Assembly: GCA_016714815.1 (NCBI GenBank)
Contig: JADKBZ010000008.1
Location: 53,513 to 117,512 of the forward strand
DNA length: 64,000 bases
Source of the DNA: Holophagales bacterium
GTDB taxonomy: Bacteria > Acidobacteriota > Thermoanaerobaculia > UBA5066
Reading direction: 5' to 3'
The position numbers and the translations under genes were made by a program. Positions within the stretch are counted from its first letter, which is position 1, and every line of letters begins with the position of its first letter. The notes below the pieces were generated by a model that had not been told where the DNA came from, made no database searches, and worked only from the letters and a program-made list of their open reading frames with translations. This document shows, in pieces, positions 2,654 to 10,929 of the stretch.

Positions 2654-3682
2654 ATGAAGACGGTCATCACCTTCGGCGAGATCATGCTGAGGCTCTCCCC
2701 GCCCGGGTTCGAGCGGCTCTTCCAGTCGCCGCTCCTCGCGGCCACCTTCGGCGGCGGGGAGGCGAACGTCGCCGTCAGCCTCGCCCACTTCGGCCTCGAC
2801 AGCCGCTACGTGACGCGCCTTCCCGCCAATGCCGTCGGCGACGCCGCGCTCCGGGCCGTGCGGGCCGAAGGGGTGAACGTCGACGGGGTCCTCCGCGGCG
2901 GCGACCGCCTCGGCATCTACTTCGCCGAGACGGGCGCGAGCCAGCGCGCCGGCGTCGTGGTCTACGACCGGGCCGGTTCCGCCGTGGCCGGCGCCGGGCC
3001 CGGGGTGTTCGACTGGGCGCGGCTCCTTTCGGGAGCGGCCTGGTTTCACGTCACCGGGATCACCCCCGCCCTCGGCCCCGCCGCCGCCGCGACGACGCTC
3101 GAGGCCGTCGAGGCCGCACGCGCGGCCGGAGCGCGCGTCTCGATCGACCTCAACTTCCGAAGGAAGCTCTGGACCGAGGAGGAGGCGCAGGCCGTGATGC
3201 GGCCCCTGGCGGCGCGGGCCCACGTCGTGATCGCAAACGAGGAGGACGTCCAGGCGTGCCTCGGGCTCGCGGTGCGGGACACCGACGTGCGACGCGGCGG
3301 GCTCGACCCCGCGGCCTATCGCGAGACGGCCGTCCGGGTCGCGCGGGACTTCGGATCGGAGCTCGTCGCGATCACGCTCCGGGAGAGCCGGTCGGCAAGC
3401 CGGAACGGCTGGAGCGCCGTCCTGTGGGACGCGGCCGCGGCGGCCTTCCACGAAAGCCGGAAATACGACGTGACCCTCGTCGACCGGATCGGCGGGGGCG
3501 ACTCGTTCGCCGCCGGCCTCGTCTTCGGGCTCGTCACCGGGCGCTCCCCGGCGGAGGCGCTCGGCTTCGCGGTCGCCGCCAGCGCCCTGAAGCAGACGAT
3601 CCCGGGGGACTTCAACCGCGTGACGGTCGACGAGGTCGACCGCCTCGCGGGCGGCGACGGGAGCGGGCGGGTCCGGCGGTAG
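2654..3682 (+). CDS. kdgK: 2-dehydro-3-deoxygluconokinase (PfkB-family sugar kinase)
   Basis: 342 aa. N-terminal [18 protein letters not shown] and C-terminal [16 protein letters not shown] (PfkB signature 2). AGGAAG RBS before ATG 2654. Confidence 0.8.
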
Positions 3683-3734
3683 CGGGCGACGTCCGTCCCG
3701 GCATCCCTTTCCATCCGCCCGGCTTCACACCGTC

Positions 3735-3762
3735 TTGACACGCTCCCGCCGTCTGCTATCGT
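3735..3762 (+). promoter_or_regulatory. Putative sigma70-type promoter (TTGACA, 16-nt spacer, TATCGT) upstream of the PhoU-fusion/pst operon
   Basis: A perfect TTGACA hexamer at 3735-3740 in a roughly 70% GC genome, with an appropriately spaced -10-like TATCGT at 3757-3762. Inference only. Confidence 0.3.
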
Positions 3763-3820
3763 CCTGCGTTGCAAGGAGATAGCGGGGAGGCCGCCTCCTC
3801 TCTCGCCATCAAGGAAGCGA

Positions 3821-4927
3821 ATGCCGACCCGTCTGGAAATCTCCCTCGAACGCGACATCGACCGTATCCGCCAGGAGCTCCTCGAGATGTCCAGCCTCGC
3901 GGAGCGGGCTCTGCGGGATTGCGTCGAGTCGTTCGGCGTCGGCAACCGCCAGCGGGCCTACGCCGTCATCCTGCGCGATCAGCTCATCGACGAGAAGGAG
4001 AAGGAGATCGACCGGCTCTGCCTCGAGTTCCTCGTGCGGCAGCAGCCCGTCGGCATCCACCTCCGGCTCGCCTACAGCGCCATCAAGATCAACCTTGAGC
4101 TGGAGAGGGTCGGGGACTACGCCGAGAGCATCGCCCGGCAGGTCCTCCGCCTCGACACGCTCCCGGAGGCGCCCGCGCCGCTCCAGCGGCGGCTCGTCGA
4201 GATGGCCGACCTCTCCATCCCGATGATCCACGACGCGATCGAGGCGTTCGTGAAGCAGGACGCCGAGCTCGCGAAGGCGGTCATCGTCAGCGAGCCGGCC
4301 GTCGACGCGCTCCTCGGCAAGCTCGTCACCGAGCTCGTCGAGGAGGTCCGCGAGTCGCGGATCGTCCCGGAGATGCTCGTGGCGCTCTCCACGATCGGCC
4401 GCCGCTTCGAGCGCGTGGCGGACCAGGCCCGGAACGTCTGCATGGAGACGCTCTACATGTGCACGGGCCAGTACGCCAAGCACCCGGGCGCCGACACCTT
4501 CCGCGTCCTCTTCGTGGGCGAGCACAACGCCTGCCGGAGCCAGATGGCCGAAGCGATCGCCCAGTCGCTCGGGCAGCCGAAGTTCGTCTTCTCCAGCGCC
4601 GGCCTCGAGCCGCGAGCGATCGACCCGAGGACCTTCGCCTTCCTGAAGGAGAAGGGGTTCGACGCCCTCCACATGGCGCCGAAGGGGACCGACCAGATCC
4701 CGAACCTCGAGTACTACAACGTCGTCGTCGGGGTCGCCACCGAGGCGCAGCAGGCGTTTCCGCGCACGCCGCGAAACCTCGTCTACGTCGACTGGAGCAT
4801 CGACGACCCGTCGCGCGCCGAGGGCTCTCCCGAAGAGGTTCACGCGGCCTACGAGGCGGCGTACGAATTCCTTTCCCGCAACGTCCGGGACCTCGTTGGC
4901 GCCGTCCTCGGAATCGCCCTCGACTAG
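3821..4927 (+). CDS. Fusion protein: N-terminal PhoU-domain phosphate-signalling regulator plus C-terminal low-molecular-weight protein-tyrosine-phosphatase/ArsC-like domain with a degenerate P-loop (nucleophilic Cys replaced)
   Basis: 368 aa. Residues 1-~215 are PhoU-like helical repeats. The C-terminal part has FRVLFVGEHNACRSQMAEAIAQ (canonical C-x-G-N-x-C-R-S becomes G-E-H-N-A-C-R-S) and a downstream DWSIDDPS (D-P loop). AAGGAAG RBS. Sits directly upstream of pstSCAB in the position phoU usually occupies after pstB. Confidence 0.75.
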   Translation: MPTRLEISLERDIDRIRQELLEMSSLAERALRDCVESFGVGNRQRAYAVILRDQLIDEKEKEIDRLCLEFLVRQQPVGIHLRLAYSAIKINLELERVGDYAESIARQVLRLDTLPEAPAPLQRRLVEMADLSIPMIHDAIEAFVKQDAELAKAVIVSEPAVDALLGKLVTELVEEVRESRIVPEMLVALSTIGRRFERVADQARNVCMETLYMCTGQYAKHPGADTFRVLFVGEHNACRSQMAEAIAQSLGQPKFVFSSAGLEPRAIDPRTFAFLKEKGFDALHMAPKGTDQIPNLEYYNVVVGVATEAQQAFPRTPRNLVYVDWSIDDPSRAEGSPEEVHAAYEAAYEFLSRNVRDLVGAVLGIALD

Positions 4928-4952
4928 CACGCAACGCCCCACAGGAGAGCTC

Positions 4953-5948
4953 ATGGCCCGACTTCGTTCCCGCGCGCAGCTTCGGATGTCCGCCCTCTTC
5001 CTCGCCGCCACACTCGCCGTTCCGGCCTGCGGAGGCGGTGGGAGCAAGGAAGCGAAGGACGCGAAGCCTTCGAACACCGTCCTCCAGAACAAGGGCTCCG
5101 ACACCATGGTCAACGTCGCCCAGGTCTGGGCGGAGGAGTACCGCAAGGTCGCGCCGAACGTCGAGGTCGAGGTCTCCGGCGGCGGCTCGGGCGTCGGGAT
5201 CGCCGCGCTCCTGAAGGGAGCGGTCGACCTCGCCAACGCCAGCCGGGACATCAAGCCGAGCGAGGCCGAGCAGGCGTCGAAGAACACCGGCAAGTCCCCC
5301 GTCGGGTTCAACGTCGGCGCCGACGCCCTCGCCGTCTACGTCCACAAGGACAACCCGATGTCCGAAATCACCCTCGTGCAGCTCACCGACCTCTACGCCG
5401 AAGGCGGGAAGGTGACCCGCTGGTCGGAGCTCGGAATCACCATCCCCGGCGTCAAGGACGACACGATCGTCCGCGTGAGCCGCCAGTCGAGCTCCGGCAC
5501 CTACGAGTTCTTCCGCGAGCACGCCCTCGGGAACCGCGATTTTCGGCTCGGCTCGCGCGACCTGAACGGCTCCAAGGAAGTCGTCGAGCTCGTCGGAACG
5601 ACCCCGACGGCGATCGGCTACAGCGGCATGGGATACGCGACGGCCGACGTGAAGATGCTGAAGGTCGCGCCGAAAGCCGGTGCCCCGGCCGTCGCCCCGA
5701 CGATCGCCGCCGTCCACGACAAGAGCTACCCGCTGGCCCGCTCGCTCCACGTCTACACCCTCGGCCAGCCCGAGGGAGCGGTGAAGGCCTACATCGACTG
5801 GATCCTCTCCCCCGCCGGCCAGAAGGTCGTCGAGGACGCCGGCTACGTGCCGGTCGCCGCCGCGGGAAACGCGACTGGGGCTCTCGCCACTGAGGCGCCC
5901 GCTCCCGGCGCTCCGCCAGCCCCCGCGGCCCCTCAGCCGAAGCCCTGA
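4953..5948 (+). CDS. pstS: Phosphate ABC transporter substrate-binding protein
   Basis: Start moved to the ATG at 4953 (AGGAGAG RBS). Signal/lipoprotein-like N-terminus MARLRSRAQLRMSALFLAATLAVPACGGG. The PstS fold signature SGGGSGVG and Pro/Ala-rich C-terminal tail are present. Confidence 0.85.
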   Translation: MARLRSRAQLRMSALFLAATLAVPACGGGGSKEAKDAKPSNTVLQNKGSDTMVNVAQVWAEEYRKVAPNVEVEVSGGGSGVGIAALLKGAVDLANASRDIKPSEAEQASKNTGKSPVGFNVGADALAVYVHKDNPMSEITLVQLTDLYAEGGKVTRWSELGITIPGVKDDTIVRVSRQSSSGTYEFFREHALGNRDFRLGSRDLNGSKEVVELVGTTPTAIGYSGMGYATADVKMLKVAPKAGAPAVAPTIAAVHDKSYPLARSLHVYTLGQPEGAVKAYIDWILSPAGQKVVEDAGYVPVAAAGNATGALATEAPAPGAPPAPAAPQPKP

Positions 5949-6012
5949 GGAGGCCCATCCGCATGGAGACGCCGGGCCCCGGGGCGCCTCGCCCCGGGGC
6001 TCGACCCGAATC

Positions 6013-6942
6013 ATGAGCAGCGTGCCGTCCCCCATCCGGATCGCCCGCGCCGAGCGGTCGCGTGCCGCCGTCCTCGCGGAGAAGGCCCTCGAGGCGCTCA
6101 TCCGCCTGAGCGGCGTCAGCGCCATCCTCTTCGTCGCGGCCATCTTCTTCTTCGTCCTCAAGGAAGCCGCGCCCGTTCTCTTCAGCGAGGGGTTCTCGCT
6201 CGGGCAATTCCTCTTCAGCACCGAGTGGTACCCGACCTCGGCCAACAACGTCCGCTACGGCACCTTCGCTCTGACGGTCGGAACCCTGAGCGTCACCGCG
6301 CTCGCGATGCTCATCGCCGTTCCCTTCGGCCTCGGCGCGGCGATCTACCTCTCGGAGTTCTGCAAGCCGCGCCTGCGCGAGACGCTCAAGGTCGTCATCG
6401 AGCTCCTCTCGGCGATCCCGAGCGTCGTGTGGGGCTTCGTCGGCCTCACCGTCATGAGCAAGCTCATCGTGAACGCGACGGGCGCGCCGGTCGGCGTGAA
6501 CGTCCTCAACGGCGGGATCATCCTCGCCCTCATGAGCGTCCCCGTCATCGTCTCGATCGGCGAGGACGCCCTGAAGGCCGTCCCCGACTCCTTCCGCGAG
6601 GCGGGGGTCGCGCTCGGCGCCACGCGCTGGCAGCTCGTCTACCGCGTCCTCCTCCCCGCCGCCAGGAACGGACTCCTCGCGGCCGTCCTCCTCGGCGTCG
6701 GGCGCGCCGTGGGCGAGACGATGGCCGTCCTGATGGCGACCGGGCACGCCGTCCACATCCCCGGAAGCCTCCTCGACTCGGTCCGCACCCTCACGGCGAA
6801 CATCGCCGCCGAGCTCGGAGAGGCGCCCTCCGGCTCCGACCACTACCGCGTCCTCTTCCTCACCGGGACGCTCCTCTTCCTCATCACCCTCGTCGTGAAC
6901 CTGACGGCCGACTTCGTCGTCCGCGGGATCCGGAGGAAGTAG
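6013..6942 (+). CDS. pstC: Phosphate ABC transporter permease
   Basis: 309 aa, multi-TM, EAA-like loop, typical PstC. Confidence 0.9.
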   Translation: MSSVPSPIRIARAERSRAAVLAEKALEALIRLSGVSAILFVAAIFFFVLKEAAPVLFSEGFSLGQFLFSTEWYPTSANNVRYGTFALTVGTLSVTALAMLIAVPFGLGAAIYLSEFCKPRLRETLKVVIELLSAIPSVVWGFVGLTVMSKLIVNATGAPVGVNVLNGGIILALMSVPVIVSIGEDALKAVPDSFREAGVALGATRWQLVYRVLLPAARNGLLAAVLLGVGRAVGETMAVLMATGHAVHIPGSLLDSVRTLTANIAAELGEAPSGSDHYRVLFLTGTLLFLITLVVNLTADFVVRGIRRK

Positions 6943-6944
6943 CC

Positions 6945-7838
6945 GTGGCCGGCCGCTTCGCGAAGACCCCGCACATCGCCCGCAAGGAGATCGCCGAGTC
7001 CGTCGCCAGGAGCGTCTTCGGCCTCATGTCGGCCGCGATGATCGTGCCGCTCGTCCTGATCGTCGGATACCTCGTCGTCCTGGCGTGGCCCGCCCTGAGC
7101 CTGGAGTTCCTCCTCGACGTCCCGAAGCGCGGGATGACGGACGGCGGCATCTGGCCCGCCTTCGTCGGGACGCTCTACCTCGTCGGCATCTCGCTCCTGG
7201 TCTCCACGCCGATCGGGGTCCTCGCCGCGATCTACCTGAACGAGTACGCCAAGGACAACTGGTTCAACCGCCTCGTGAACCTCGCCGTCATCAACCTGGC
7301 GGGCGTCCCGAGCATCGTCCACGCCCTCTTCGGCCTCGGCGCCTTCGTCTACGCGGCCCGCTTCGGATACTCGATCCTCTCCGCCTCGCTGACGCTGGCC
7401 ATCATGACGCTCCCCGTCATCATCGCGAGCACGCGCGAGGCGCTCGCCTCCGTCCCGATGGCCTTCCGCGAGGCGTGCTGGAACGTCGGCGCGACGCGCT
7501 GGCAGACGGTCCGCGCCGTCGTCCTGCCGAACTCCATCAGCGGCATCCTCACCGGCGTCATCCTCCAGGTGAGCCGCGCCGCCGGAGAGACGGCCCCCGT
7601 CATGTTCACGGGGGCCGTCTTCTTCAAGGCCGTCCAGCGGGGCGACCTCTTCCCCTACGGCCTCGGCGACCAGTGCATGGCGCTCTCCATGCACCTCTAC
7701 ACGCTCGCGACCCAGGTGCCGAACGTGAAGGAGGCGCTCCCCTACGCGACGGCCGTCGTCCTCCTCGGCTCGGTCCTGCTCGTGAACGCGACCGCCATCG
7801 TGCTCCGGATCTGGCTTAGGAACCGGAAGAAGTGGTGA
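6945..7838 (+). CDS. pstA: Phosphate ABC transporter permease
   Basis: GTG start at 6945 after GGAGGAAG, 2 nt after the pstC stop. VAGRFAKTPHIARKEIAES... typical PstA. The upstream part of ORF 6225..7838 is in a different frame from pstC and Arg-rich. Confidence 0.88.
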   Translation: MAGRFAKTPHIARKEIAESVARSVFGLMSAAMIVPLVLIVGYLVVLAWPALSLEFLLDVPKRGMTDGGIWPAFVGTLYLVGISLLVSTPIGVLAAIYLNEYAKDNWFNRLVNLAVINLAGVPSIVHALFGLGAFVYAARFGYSILSASLTLAIMTLPVIIASTREALASVPMAFREACWNVGATRWQTVRAVVLPNSISGILTGVILQVSRAAGETAPVMFTGAVFFKAVQRGDLFPYGLGDQCMALSMHLYTLATQVPNVKEALPYATAVVLLGSVLLVNATAIVLRIWLRNRKKW

Positions 7839-7842
7839 CGGC

Positions 7843-8631
7843 GTGACGGAGAGCGCGACCCACGCCCCGGCGAGCCCGGTGAAGGAGATCGAGGTCTCGG
7901 ACCTCCGCCTCGCCTACGGGGGCAAGGAGGTGATCCACGGGATCTCCTTCAACGTCCACCGCAACGAGATCCTCGCCGTCATCGGACCGGCGCAGTCGGG
8001 CAAGACCTCGATGCTCCGCTGCCTGAACCGGACGATCGACTTCACCGCCTCGGCCTCGGTCTCGGGGTGCGTGAAGGTGGGCGGCCAGGACGTGCGGGCG
8101 ATGAAGGACGTCTTCGCCCTGAGGCGCCGGATCGGGATGGTCGCGCCGCTTCCGACGGGCCTCCCGCTCTCGATCTACGACAACGTCGCCTTCGCCCCCC
8201 GCTGCTCGGGCGTGACGCGCAAGGCCGACCTCGAGCCCGTCGTCGAGAAGTGCCTCCGGCAGGCCGCCCTCTGGGACGAGGTGAAGGACCGGCTCGACAG
8301 CCTCGGCACGGCCCTCTCCGGCGGGCAGCAGCAGCGCCTCACGATCGCCCGGGCGCTCTCGCACCAGCCCGAGATCCTCTGCCTCGACGAGTTCTCGATC
8401 GCCATCGACCCCGTGACGACGATGCGGATCGAGGACGTCCTCAAGGAGCTGCGCGAGGAGATCACCATCATCCTCGTGACGAACCTGACGCAGCAGGCCC
8501 GGCGGCTCTCCGACCGGACGATGTTCCTCCTGGAGGGCGACATCGTCGAGATCGACGCGACCGACGTCATCTACTCCGGCGAGTCGAAGAGCGAGAAGAC
8601 GCGCGGCTACGTCAGCGGGATGTTCGGATGA
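7843..8631 (+). CDS. pstB: Phosphate ABC transporter ATP-binding protein paralog 1 (signature motif intact, H-loop His replaced by Asn)
   Basis: Walker A GPAQSGKTS, signature LSGGQQQR, Walker B ILCLDEFS. The H-loop reads VTNLTQQA where the canonical form is VTHNMxQA. Confidence 0.85.
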   Translation: MTESATHAPASPVKEIEVSDLRLAYGGKEVIHGISFNVHRNEILAVIGPAQSGKTSMLRCLNRTIDFTASASVSGCVKVGGQDVRAMKDVFALRRRIGMVAPLPTGLPLSIYDNVAFAPRCSGVTRKADLEPVVEKCLRQAALWDEVKDRLDSLGTALSGGQQQRLTIARALSHQPEILCLDEFSIAIDPVTTMRIEDVLKELREEITIILVTNLTQQARRLSDRTMFLLEGDIVEIDATDVIYSGESKSEKTRGYVSGMFG

Positions 8632-9401
8632 GCGCCGAGCCGCACGCCATCGAGACCCGGGGACTCTCCCTCTGGTACGGGAGCTTCCAGGCGCTCTTCG
8701 ACGTCTCCACCGACATCCGGAGCGGGATCATCACCTCCCTCATCGGCCCGAGCGGCTGCGGGAAGACCACGCTCCTGCGCTGCTTCAACCGCGTGAACGA
8801 ACGCTACGGGAACGTGAGGACGGCGGGCGAGATCCGGATCCTCGGCGAGAGCATCTACGATCCGGACGTCTCCCTCATCGAGCTGCGCAAGGCCGTGGGG
8901 ATGGTCTTCCAGCGCCCGAATCCGCTCCCCATCTCGGTCTACGAGAACGTCGTCTTCGGCCTCCGGGTCCACACCCCCCGCACCGACCTGAAGCGCTCCG
9001 TCCTCGACGAGGCGGTGGAGAAGGCCCTCACCGAGGTCGGCCTCTGGAAGGACCTGAAGGACCGCCTGAAGACGAAGGCGACGGGCCTCCTCCTCGAGCA
9101 GCAGCAGAAGCTCTGCCTCGCCCGCCTCCTCCCGCTCAAGCCCGAGGTCATCCTGATGGACGAGCCCGCCTCCGCCCTCGACGTCGGCGGGACGCGCGCC
9201 ATCGAGGAGCTGATGTTCGAGCTGGCCGGGAAGTACACGATCGTCATCGTGACGCACAACATGGCCCAGGCGCGGCGGGCGAGCGACGAGTGCATCTTCA
9301 TGCTCATGGGCAAGGTCGTCGAGCACGCGCGGACCGAGGACCTCTTCCTCAACCCGCAGAACCCGAAGACCGCGGAGTACATCGAAGGCCGCTACGCGTA
9401 G
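8628..9401 (+). CDS. pstB: Phosphate ABC transporter ATP-binding protein paralog 2 (Walker A and H-loop intact, signature motif degenerate)
   Basis: ATGA start/stop overlap with pstB1. Walker A GPSGCGKTT, Walker B ILMDEPASALD, H-loop VTHNMAQA. The LSGGQ signature is replaced by LLLEQQQK. Confidence 0.88.
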   Translation: MSAEPHAIETRGLSLWYGSFQALFDVSTDIRSGIITSLIGPSGCGKTTLLRCFNRVNERYGNVRTAGEIRILGESIYDPDVSLIELRKAVGMVFQRPNPLPISVYENVVFGLRVHTPRTDLKRSVLDEAVEKALTEVGLWKDLKDRLKTKATGLLLEQQQKLCLARLLPLKPEVILMDEPASALDVGGTRAIEELMFELAGKYTIVIVTHNMAQARRASDECIFMLMGKVVEHARTEDLFLNPQNPKTAEYIEGRYA

Positions 9402-9501
9402 GCGACCGGCCACGCGGCGGGCCCCCCTCGCGGGGAGCTGAGCCCGGCCGGGCGGACACCCCGCGCGCGATCCCTATACTCCGCGCCACCGGCCCGACGG
9501 A

Positions 9502-10929
9502 ATGGTCTTCAGCACCTCCCTCTTCCTCCTCTTCTTCCTCCCCGCGTTCCTCGCGGGCTACCACCTCCTTCCCCGGCCCGCCCGGAACACCTTCGTCCTC
9601 CTGGCGAGCGCCCTCTTCTACGCCTGGGGCGCCCCGCGCTTCCTCTTCGTCGTCCTCGGCGTCACGTTCCTCGACTTCCACTTCGTGAAGAGGATGGCCG
9701 CGGCGAACGGCCCTGCGCGCAAGCGGGCCTGGCTCGTCGCCTCGCTCGCCATGAACCTCGGCCTCCTCGGCTATTTCAAGTACGCGGGGTTCTTCGTCGG
9801 GAACGTCAACGCGCTCCTCGGCGCCGCGGGGCTCGGCCCGCTTCCGTGGGCCGAGGTCTTCCTCCCGCTCGGAATCTCCTTCTACACGTTCGAGACGGTG
9901 ACCTACGTCGTCGACGTCTACCGGGGCGTCCACGCGCCGCTCGGCCGCTTCGCCGACTACCAGCTCTACATCCTCTTCTTCCCAAAGCTCCTCGCCGGGC
10001 CGATCGTCCGCTTCCACGAGATCGCCGACCAGATCGGCGACCGCTCGCGGTACGAGACGGCGGGACGCTTCCTCGGCGGCTTCGTCCGCTTCGTCCTCGG
10101 GCTCGCGAAGAAGGTGCTGATCGCCGACGTCCTCGGGGTGACGGTGAGGAAGGGCTTCGCGCTCGACGCGGCGGCCCTCGACGCGCCGGCCGCGTGGCTC
10201 CTCCTCGCCGCATTCCTGACACAGATCTACTTCGACTTCTCCGGCTACAGCGACATGGCCCTCGGCCTGGCGGCGATGGTCGGCTTCCGCCTGCCGGAGA
10301 ACTTCCGGGACCCGTTCGTCTCGACGAGCGTGACGGAGTTCTGGACCCGCTGGCACGTCACGCTCTCGGCGTGGATGCGCAGCTACCTCTACGTCCCGCT
10401 CGGCGGGAACCGGCTCGGAACCCGCCGGACGCTCGCGAACCTCTGGATCGTCTTCCTCGTCTCCGGCCTGTGGCACGGGGCGGCCTGGCACTACGTCCTC
10501 TGGGGGGCGTGGCACGGGCTCTTCATCGTGGCGGAGCGGACGGCCTTCGGCCGGCTCCTCGCGAAGGCCGGCCCGGTCGCGGGTCGGGCCTACGTCTTCC
10601 TCGCGGTCGTCGCCTCGATGGCGCTCTTCCGTCCCGCGGGCCTCCTCTCCGAGAACCTCCGGACCCTCGCCGCCCTCGCCGGGGGCGGCTCCGGCACCGC
10701 CGCGCTCCCGCTCGACCGGGAGTTCGCCGTCACGCTCGGCGTGGCCCTCGTCTTCACCTTTTTCGCGGCGCTCCCGGGCGCCGCCGCGATCCAGCGACTC
10801 GTCTTCGACGACGACCCGTCCCTGCCCCGCCAGCTGGCGCTCGTCCCGGCGGCGGGCCTTCTCCTCCTCCTCTGCCTTTCGATGGTCGCCTGGTCCCCGT
10901 TCAGCCCGTTCGTCTACTTCCGGTTCTGA
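9502..10929 (+). CDS. MBOAT-family membrane-bound O-acyltransferase (AlgI/DltB/PatA-like)
   Basis: 475 aa, polytopic. Conserved MBOAT His region WHGAAWHYVLWGAWHG. Confidence 0.85.
   Translation: MVFSTSLFLLFFLPAFLAGYHLLPRPARNTFVLLASALFYAWGAPRFLFVVLGVTFLDFHFVKRMAAANGPARKRAWLVASLAMNLGLLGYFKYAGFFVGNVNALLGAAGLGPLPWAEVFLPLGISFYTFETVTYVVDVYRGVHAPLGRFADYQLYILFFPKLLAGPIVRFHEIADQIGDRSRYETAGRFLGGFVRFVLGLAKKVLIADVLGVTVRKGFALDAAALDAPAAWLLLAAFLTQIYFDFSGYSDMALGLAAMVGFRLPENFRDPFVSTSVTEFWTRWHVTLSAWMRSYLYVPLGGNRLGTRRTLANLWIVFLVSGLWHGAAWHYVLWGAWHGLFIVAERTAFGRLLAKAGPVAGRAYVFLAVVASMALFRPAGLLSENLRTLAALAGGGSGTAALPLDREFAVTLGVALVFTFFAALPGAAAIQRLVFDDDPSLPRQLALVPAAGLLLLLCLSMVAWSPFSPFVYFRF

Follow-up and report, generated by a model that had tools for sequence, protein, structure and literature searches.

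A 64-kb window, i.e. the whole stretch of DNA analysed here, from a Holophagales (Acidobacteriota) metagenome-assembled genome (MAG), carries the operon of a phosphate-importing ATP-binding cassette (ABC) transporter. This pst operon occupies positions 3821-9401 of the forward strand in the order phoU-pstS-pstC-pstA-pstB1-pstB2, with two adjacent genes for the ATP-binding subunit PstB in last place. In ABC transporters the nucleotide-binding domains (NBDs) dimerise head-to-tail, and the Walker face of one NBD together with the signature of the other makes up one ATP site. Neither PstB1 nor PstB2 holds the full canonical PstB motif set in one polypeptide: PstB1 is without the Q-loop Gln and the H-loop His, and PstB2 is without the signature Ser-Gly-Gly. 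We propose that the two proteins form an obligate heterodimer with one consensus ATP site, which we consider the likely reading of their sequences. Below, we describe the motifs of both proteins, the conservation of the pair across bacterial phyla and the remainder of the operon, before weighing this proposal against its alternatives.

Motif states of the two PstB proteins

Both open reading frames (ORFs) lie where the original prediction had placed them, on the forward strand like all window features given below. The gene pstB1 spans 7843-8631 (GTG start, 262 aa) and pstB2 spans 8628-9401 (ATG start, 257 aa); the stop codon of the former and the start codon of the latter share 4 bp (ATGA). 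The two proteins are 34% identical to each other. The best model for both is the PstB equivalog TIGR00972, with 271.5 bits for PstB1 and 316.4 bits for PstB2, yet both remain below its cut-off of 343.2 bits, and likewise below the cut-offs of the other four PstB models. Identical public proteins exist for PstB1 (MBK8596559.1) and PstB2 (MBK8596560.1), and carry no annotation beyond 'phosphate ABC transporter ATP-binding protein'. Besides these two, no further PstB-like gene was found in the 64-kb window.

The motif positions were set by full-length alignment to Escherichia coli PstB (PDB 9k3x_C), with E-values of 4e-56 for PstB1 and 8e-72 for PstB2. In PstB1, the A-loop (7909-7923) keeps its Tyr25, and Walker A (GPAQSGKT, 7984-8007) keeps its Lys-Thr, with Ala for Ser at position 3 and Gln for the fourth Gly. 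The Q-loop (MVAPLP, 8137-8166, as against MVFQKP) has Pro102 in place of the Gln. The signature LSGGQQQR (8314-8337) is intact. Walker B (ILCLDEF, 8374-8394) keeps D182 and E183, followed by Phe instead of Pro; the D-loop (SIAID, 8395-8409) has Ile in place of Ser and the H-loop (VTNLT, 8476-8490) has Asn214 in place of His. In PstB2, the A-loop Tyr is kept, and Walker A (GPSGCGKT, 8745-8768), the Q-loop (MVFQRPNP, 8901-8930), Walker B (VILMDEP with D178 and E179, 9147-9167), the D-loop (SALD, 9171-9182) and the H-loop (VTHNM, 9249-9263) are all consensus. Its signature, LLLEQQQK (9087-9110), is degenerate and carries the substitutions S155L, G156L, G157E and R161K.

The strings quoted in the original prediction (GPAQSGKTS, LSGGQQQR and VTNLTQQ for PstB1; GPSGCGKTT, VTHNMAQ and LLLEQQQK for PstB2) are all present at the Walker A, signature and H-loop positions, and the alignment with E. 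coli PstB and 67 canonical PstB sequences rules out a misreading of the motifs. The PstB1 Walker A, which had been called usable, is so in the general P-loop sense, as it fits GxxxxGK[ST], but it does not fit the ABC form GxxGxGK[ST], because the fourth Gly is gone. The His to Asn change in the PstB1 H-loop had been recognised correctly, but the list of PstB1 lesions was incomplete: the Q-loop Gln to Pro, the post-Walker B Pro to Phe and the D-loop Ser to Ile changes had been overlooked.

Conservation and inheritance of the pair

A genome scan, with one genome per species, gave 24 loci with a PstB1-type gene and 56 canonical loci (67 PstB sequences, 11 tandem pairs). With the window included, this amounts to 25 PstB1-type and 24 PstB2-type sequences, counts that are not phylogenetically independent. 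The best-match identity to PstB1 is 55-86% at the 24 loci and then falls sharply to 48% or less, where the matches are canonical PstB. A PstB2-type gene, 58-93% identical to that of the window, lies directly downstream of the PstB1-type gene at all 24 loci, in about eight phyla; thus, the relatives, which the original prediction had proposed to check, do carry the same pair, and carry it as neighbours. The hosts are Acidobacteriota (Holophagales, Thermoanaerobaculia), Verrucomicrobiota including the isolate Limisphaera sp. 4302-co, Poribacteria, Polyangiaceae and other 'delta' MAGs (Myxococcota-like), Chromatiaceae and other Gammaproteobacteria, Betaproteobacteria (Accumulibacter), Planctomycetota/Pirellulales and Binatia. 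The Pst gene arrangement (pstS, pstC, pstA, phoU) is shared by 22 of the 24 related loci, i.e. by all those in which the contig extends far enough. Among the plasmids of PLSDB there was no PstB1-type gene, every match being less than 47% identical.

The motif states of the window proteins recur throughout. Every one of the 25 PstB1-type proteins carries GPA/S-[QNRT]-x-GK[TS], V-x-PLPVG, LSGGQQQR, LDEFSIA[IV]D and VTNL[VT], and each of the 24 PstB2-type proteins combines consensus Walker A, Q-loop, Walker B and H-loop motifs with the signature L-[LQSTA]-L-E-x-QQK. The same lesions are therefore found in 25/25 PstB1-type, 24/24 PstB2-type and 0/67 canonical PstB proteins; all 67 of the latter keep the Gln of the Q-loop, the His of the H-loop and the two Gly of the signature. 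The 11 canonical tandem pairs (Bacillota, Gemmatimonadales, Verrucomicrobiota) show no lesions in either copy, both copies being consensus at, for instance, the Bacillota tandem loci L032, L038, L045 and L063. In a database search, the 120 closest PstB1 homologues listed, which are 82-99% identical, all have the same motif set as PstB1. Across the PstB1-type proteins, the A-loop Tyr, the Walker A GK[ST] and the Walker B DE are invariant (LDE in 25/25). As a separate observation, the fourth Walker A residue of PstB1 covaries with the second signature residue of PstB2 (loci L001-L024), Gln occurring with LQLEQ or LLLEQ and Asn mostly with LSLE; this may reflect a contact pair or shared ancestry only.

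Family-specific fixed changes were taken from alignment columns in which canonical PstB is conserved to 90% or more and the family is fixed for another residue, again to 90% or more. In PstB1 these are S50A, Q102P, N105V, P106G, F107L, A173S, P184F, S186I, L199V, I211L and H214N, and in PstB2 they are F100L, A137V, G156L, G157E, R161K, A169P and T222C. The fixed changes in ATP-contacting motifs converge on one composite site, made up of the Walker A/Q-loop/H-loop face of PstB1 and the signature of PstB2, and the D-loop change S186I of PstB1 lies at the dimer centre. A residue pair known from CFTR bears on the same interface. In CFTR, T1246 and R555, at Walker A position 3 and signature position 8, respectively, form a trans-interface pair that is conserved as a pair, with Calpha atoms <10 Å apart; the degenerate site has the non-bonding T460-L1353 instead (PMC3105517). 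The equivalent pair in canonical PstB is Ser/Arg. The consensus site of a PstB1:PstB2 dimer keeps it, as PstB2 Ser42 and PstB1 Arg165; the degenerate site is altered on both sides, to PstB1 Ala50 and PstB2 Lys161. Such a paired change, Ser to Ala together with Arg to Lys, is what the PstB1:PstB2 heterodimer predicts and homodimers do not.

In a neighbour-joining tree, the 25 PstB1 and the 24 PstB2 sequences are each monophyletic, on a long stem and with no canonical member. Identity within the clades is 64% for PstB1 and 65% for PstB2, compared with 61% for canonical PstB. Pairwise dN/dS lies between 0.06 and 0.37 for PstB1 and between 0.04 and 0.17 for PstB2, the highest value, 0.37, being that of PstB1 between the window and L001. 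The PstB1 and PstB2 distance matrices are correlated with r = 0.87, a value reached in 0 of 2000 Mantel permutations, which indicates that the pair is inherited as a unit; it has probably been transferred as a unit as well. At about two thirds of the 24 loci, the pstB1 stop codon and the pstB2 start codon overlap or are spaced by no more than 8 nt. The view that the complementary motifs arose by co-evolution and not by decay is upheld by the adjacency at all 24 loci, the invariant derived residues, the purifying selection, the correlation of the distances and a sister lineage that repeats the pattern.

This sister lineage came to light in a search of a representative library. The top matches were mostly fragments or canonical PstB, but the search revealed a group with milder lesions, termed B1'. 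Of 120 B1' sequences, 119 have Ala for the Q-loop Gln and Asn for the H-loop His; the residue at the fourth Walker A position is variable, LSGGQQQR is intact, and the Walker A GKT and the Walker B DE are invariant (LDE in 120/120). Three metagenome contigs have the order pstS-pstC-pstA-B1'-B2', with phoU next in one of them, and the B1'/B2' pairs lie at 1802-3203 of L083, 6001-7594 of L085 and 6001-7525 of L087. The B2' partners have consensus Walker A, Q-loop and H-loop motifs and the signatures LSAEQQQR, LSGEQQQR and LSPEQAQR. In the neighbour-joining tree, B1' is sister to PstB1, and proteins with LS[A/T]EQ are sister to PstB2, a placement in which long-branch or motif-driven attraction is possible. 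Both lineages share the hallmark of one subunit that has lost the Gln and the His and a second subunit with Glu for the second signature Gly.

Two further kinds of PstB-like sequence were encountered. The sole Rosetta-stone fusion candidate, a metagenomic protein of the representative library (P0123, 329 aa) which joins PstB1 residues 99-241 to PstB2 residues 97-219, was set aside as most likely an assembly or frameshift chimera. Two Poribacteria loci (L006 at 8583-9440 and L007 at 8483-9283) carry a third PstB-like gene about 1 kb past PstB2 and directly before a short phoU. The products have lesions on both faces, i.e. GPANCGKS or GPTNSGKS, MVFRKP (Gln to Arg), LSIGQQQL, LDEPCGELD and VTNKR or ATNKR; they are 76% identical to each other, and their nearest relative is canonical PstB, at about 47%.

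The pst operon and its neighbours

The only promoter-like site across 3500-9400 is a sigma-70-like candidate at 3735-3762 (TTGACA-16-TATCGT, TG-extended), a consensus match only, which lies 5' of the first gene; 0.2 such sites are expected by shuffling. The first gene (3821-4927) encodes PhoU (TIGR02135, aa 9-217) with a C-terminal domain resembling low-molecular-weight (LMW) phosphatases and ArsC (PF01451, aa 229-358). It is followed by genes for a PstS-family phosphate-binding protein (4896-5948; TIGR02136, 230.3 bits against a cut-off of 206.6; PF12849), the true start of which may lie downstream of 4896, and for the permeases PstC (6013-6942; TIGR02138, 277 bits against 196.45) and PstA (6945-7838; TIGR00974, 258.9 bits against 193.45, aa 261-528 of the long ORF). 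The mechanically called PstA ORF (6225-7838, 537 aa) is too long and runs into PstC, and homologues align from about aa 245; the start is most likely the GTG at 6945, 3 nt past the PstC stop, with GGAGGAAG upstream. PhoU, PstS, PstC and PstA all pass the curated NCBIfam cut-offs. No intrinsic-terminator-like hairpin was found 3' of PstB2. Beyond the operon lies a gene for an MBOAT/DltB-like membrane O-acyltransferase (9502-10929), with a weak promoter-like site of its own at 9453-9480. The 5' neighbour (2654-3682) encodes a PfkB-family sugar kinase that is unrelated to the pst operon; its best match, under the cut-off, is the kinase half of NF041633, a model of a KHG/KDPG aldolase-sugar kinase fusion.

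The PhoU fusion recurs with the PstB1/PstB2 cassette. A full-length fusion is found beside it in 14 of the 24 loci (L001, L003-L005, L008-L014 and L021-L023), its gene preceding pstS at some and separating pstS from pstC at others. The nucleophile Cys of the CX5R motif is absent from the LMW-phosphatase/ArsC-like domain in 15 of 15 sequences, and the Arg is often lost too. In the window, the corresponding motif is VGEHNACRS (4514-4540), in which the Cys position is occupied by Gly; the relatives have Asp or Ser there. These residues suggest that the domain is probably non-catalytic and possibly phosphate-binding.

A putative asymmetric importer motor

The results allow us to propose a mechanism in which PstB1 and PstB2 would be the two different nucleotide-binding subunits of one PstS-PstC-PstA importer, arranged head-to-tail. 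Site 1 would combine the Walker A, Q-loop, Walker B and H-loop of PstB2 with the LSGGQQQR of PstB1; this consensus site would hydrolyse the ATP that drives transport. Site 2 would combine the GPA[Q/N]xGKT, Q-loop Pro and H-loop Asn of PstB1 with the LxLEQQQK of PstB2. At this degenerate site the nucleotide would be held, ATP hydrolysis would be poor or nil, and the role of the site would be that of a hinge or a regulator. As the A-loop Tyr, Walker A Lys-Thr and Walker B Asp-Glu of PstB1 are invariant, site 2 probably binds nucleotide; that it binds ATP and does not hydrolyse it is a prediction to which we give even chances. The overlapping stop and start codons may aid the production of equal amounts of both subunits. 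In a PstB2 homodimer both sites are without the signature Ser-Gly-Gly, and in a PstB1 homodimer both are without the Q-loop Gln and the H-loop His. Since neither homodimer has a consensus site, both genes would be needed, and the invariant LSGGQQQR of PstB1 makes sense, as far as motifs can tell, only as the completion of the PstB2 site. All the comparative tests thus back the original prediction of a heterodimer with one consensus and one degenerate site, which remains a prediction from sequence.

Several points nevertheless weigh against this proposal. Degenerate sites usually lose the Walker B Glu (PMC7756269, PMC3971661), whereas PstB1 keeps it, and slow turnover at site 2 is therefore possible. 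In MRP1, a His to Asn change in the H-loop of nucleotide-binding site 2 (NBS2) leaves transport similar to that of the wild type (PMC7756269). Because PstB1 keeps the catalytic Glu, and because His to Asn alone is tolerated in MRP1, 'degenerate' may mean slow rather than dead. The Glu that replaces the second signature Gly may, in turn, block site 2 from closing on ATP; the bound ATP of our model would then be wrong, and the asymmetry would stay. This Gly to Glu change of PstB2 falls at the position of the CFTR mutation G551D. Lastly, surplus PstB2 of Enterococcus faecalis can stand in for PstB1 (PMC12096839), so that tandem PstB proteins need not be obligate partners; the E. faecalis pair is, however, a canonical one. 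A comparison of the EAA/coupling-helix regions of PstC and PstA between the cassette and canonical loci gave no family-specific signal for the pairing of NBD and permease.

Some of these points would suit a transporter in which both ATP sites are competent, the substitutions being tolerated in a divergent PstB subfamily, and in which a symmetric, heterodimer-like motor uses two ATP per cycle. PstB1 does keep the Walker A Lys-Thr, the Walker B Asp-Glu with its catalytic base and the A-loop Tyr, and in NBS2 of MRP1 transport withstands Gln as well as Asn at the H-loop His, with modest effects of Q-loop mutations (PMC7756269). We nevertheless regard two competent sites as unlikely. Three independent elements of one site have changed jointly and are frozen across phyla, namely the Gln of the Q-loop, the His of the H-loop and the Ser-Gly-Gly of the signature, into which an acidic residue was brought, while the other site is strictly consensus. 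The equivalent change in CFTR, G551D, abolishes ATP-dependent gating. The signature Gly to Glu change of PstB2 also marks the inactive site of Pdr5 (PMC7756269). Somewhat less probable still is a transporter driven by a PstB2 homodimer, with PstB1 as a regulatory pseudo-ATPase that links it to PhoU/PhoR signalling. Such a link would suit the unusual PhoU fusion that usually accompanies the cassette, and E. coli PhoU reportedly interacts with PstB, as described by Gardner et al. in 2014. The tandem PstB proteins of E. faecalis, with their non-equivalent roles, one of them accessory (PMC12096839), offer a precedent.

In a PstB2 homodimer, however, both sites would carry the Glu in place of an intact signature Ser-Gly-Gly and neither would be consensus, while the invariant LSGGQQQR of PstB1 would be useful only in the ATP site of a partner. 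The paired Ser to Ala and Arg to Lys changes suit a PstB1:PstB2 interface (PMC3105517), and the two genes are translationally coupled. The idea that one copy is a decaying duplicate on its way to a pseudogene draws on the scores of both proteins below the TIGR00972 equivalog cut-off and on the somewhat raised PstB1 dN/dS of 0.37 between the window and L001. Against it, both ORFs are uninterrupted throughout the 24 loci, as far as the contigs reach, in about eight phyla, most dN/dS comparisons fall at 0.04-0.17, the derived residues are invariant, and close homologues are abundant (120 listed matches, all at least 82% identical). Conservation and dN/dS thereby rule out decay, to which we assign a negligible probability, and neither paralog is on the way to a pseudogene, the outcome that the original prediction had named as its refutation.

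How does the proposed PstB1:PstB2 heterodimer compare with known systems? Tandem pstB genes also occur in cyanobacteria. In Firmicutes, as here, two adjacent pstB genes close a pstS-pstC-pstA operon; PstBA and PstBB of Bacillus subtilis have been modelled as a heterodimer on PstCA (PMC11466899), and pstB1 and pstB2 of E. faecalis have non-overlapping roles, in a study which states that tandem pstB paralogs had not been studied earlier (PMC12096839). In contrast to the pair described here, however, the Firmicutes proteins have all motifs consensus in both copies, those of E. faecalis being identical to the motifs of E. coli PstB (PMC12096839), and they are excluded from the PstB1 and PstB2 clades. 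The two E. faecalis proteins, furthermore, share about 60% identity, as against 34% for PstB1 and PstB2 here. The original prediction, in which the PstB of phosphate importers is normally a homodimer, is to be qualified in that a tandem arrangement of pstB genes is nothing out of the ordinary (PMC11466899, PMC12096839); the pairs in question, however, depart from the canonical form in no motif. The closest solved relative is E. coli PstSCAB (PDB 9k3s/9k3x/9k3y), with the same PstS, PstC and PstA partners. There, PstA and PstC each carry one PstB, and the two bound ATP lie between Walker A/B and the opposite LSGGQ (PMC12976172). The two PstB of that complex are identical and both sites are consensus, whereas the operon described here encodes two proteins with one consensus site between them.

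Degenerate sites are frequent in exporters (PMC3971661, PMC7756269). The exporters and channels TM287/288, BmrCD, TAP1/2, CFTR, MRP1 and Pdr5 resemble PstB1/PstB2 in that complementary deviations give one consensus and one degenerate site (PMC3971661, PMC7756269). In Pdr5, for instance, the degenerate signature reads LNVEQ and shares its Gly to Glu change with the LxLEQ of PstB2 (PMC7756269), and in CFTR the trans-interface Walker A/post-signature pair is non-canonical in the degenerate site only (T460-L1353, PMC3105517). Two non-identical NBDs, a mark of degenerate-site transporters, are present here as well (34% identity, separate clades). These systems differ from the present one in that their NBDs are fused to the transmembrane domains, whereas a type I binding-protein-dependent importer has free NBD subunits. 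Exporters usually have another residue in place of the catalytic Walker B Glu at their degenerate site, but the Glu is kept here (25/25 PstB1-type and 120/120 B1' proteins), and loss of the Q-loop Gln is not a typical exporter lesion. Among importers, one ATP site has been judged degenerate from sequence in RbsA and NupO, fused double-NBD importers of sugars and nucleosides (PMC11466899). These are single polypeptides with two NBDs, belong to another transporter class with other substrates, and have lost the Walker A Lys that is kept here. RbsA and NupO were the only importers with a degenerate site in the literature found (PMC11466899). A description of a degenerate PstB pair was not found in the full-text literature, a result that is no proof of novelty, as the coverage of subscription journals is incomplete. 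ABC motors in which a consensus site is paired with a degenerate one are thus known; what appears to be new is the occurrence of such an asymmetric motor in a type I phosphate importer, in many phyla.

The pair may represent a widespread and hitherto unrecognised class of type I importers that is fixed at one ATP per cycle, with site 2 as a permanently occupied hinge or as an input for phosphate signalling; we put this forward as a tentative and rather doubtful extension of the proposal. The signalling input might act through the co-inherited PhoU and its fused, catalytically dead LMW-phosphatase-like domain, as a phosphate sensor. The pay-offs that come to mind, i.e. one ATP per phosphate, a permanent hinge and a signalling input, are speculation. 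A more immediate consequence concerns annotation. Thousands of such proteins are labelled merely 'phosphate ABC transporter ATP-binding protein', and, because both subunits are labelled generically and fall under the PstB equivalog cut-off, pstB gene counts in metagenomes of soil, sponges and wastewater (Acidobacteriota, Poribacteria, Accumulibacter) overstate the number of independent Pst systems.

Work on degenerate ATP sites has been confined almost wholly to exporters and channels (CFTR, TAP, MRP1, Pdr5, TM287/288), and the long-standing question of whether importers need two working sites has been approached mainly via engineered mutants. The PstB1/PstB2 motor consists of two small soluble subunits, has the E. 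coli structure as a template, and occurs in at least one cultured host (Limisphaera), which makes the ATP:substrate stoichiometry, the role of the non-catalytic site and the placement of the NBDs on PstC and PstA approachable. If our proposal is true, these bacteria would provide a tractable system for the role of the second ATP, and their phosphate importer would be a natural version of the 'one site is enough' experiment that had earlier been done by mutagenesis only (HisP; PMC3971661).

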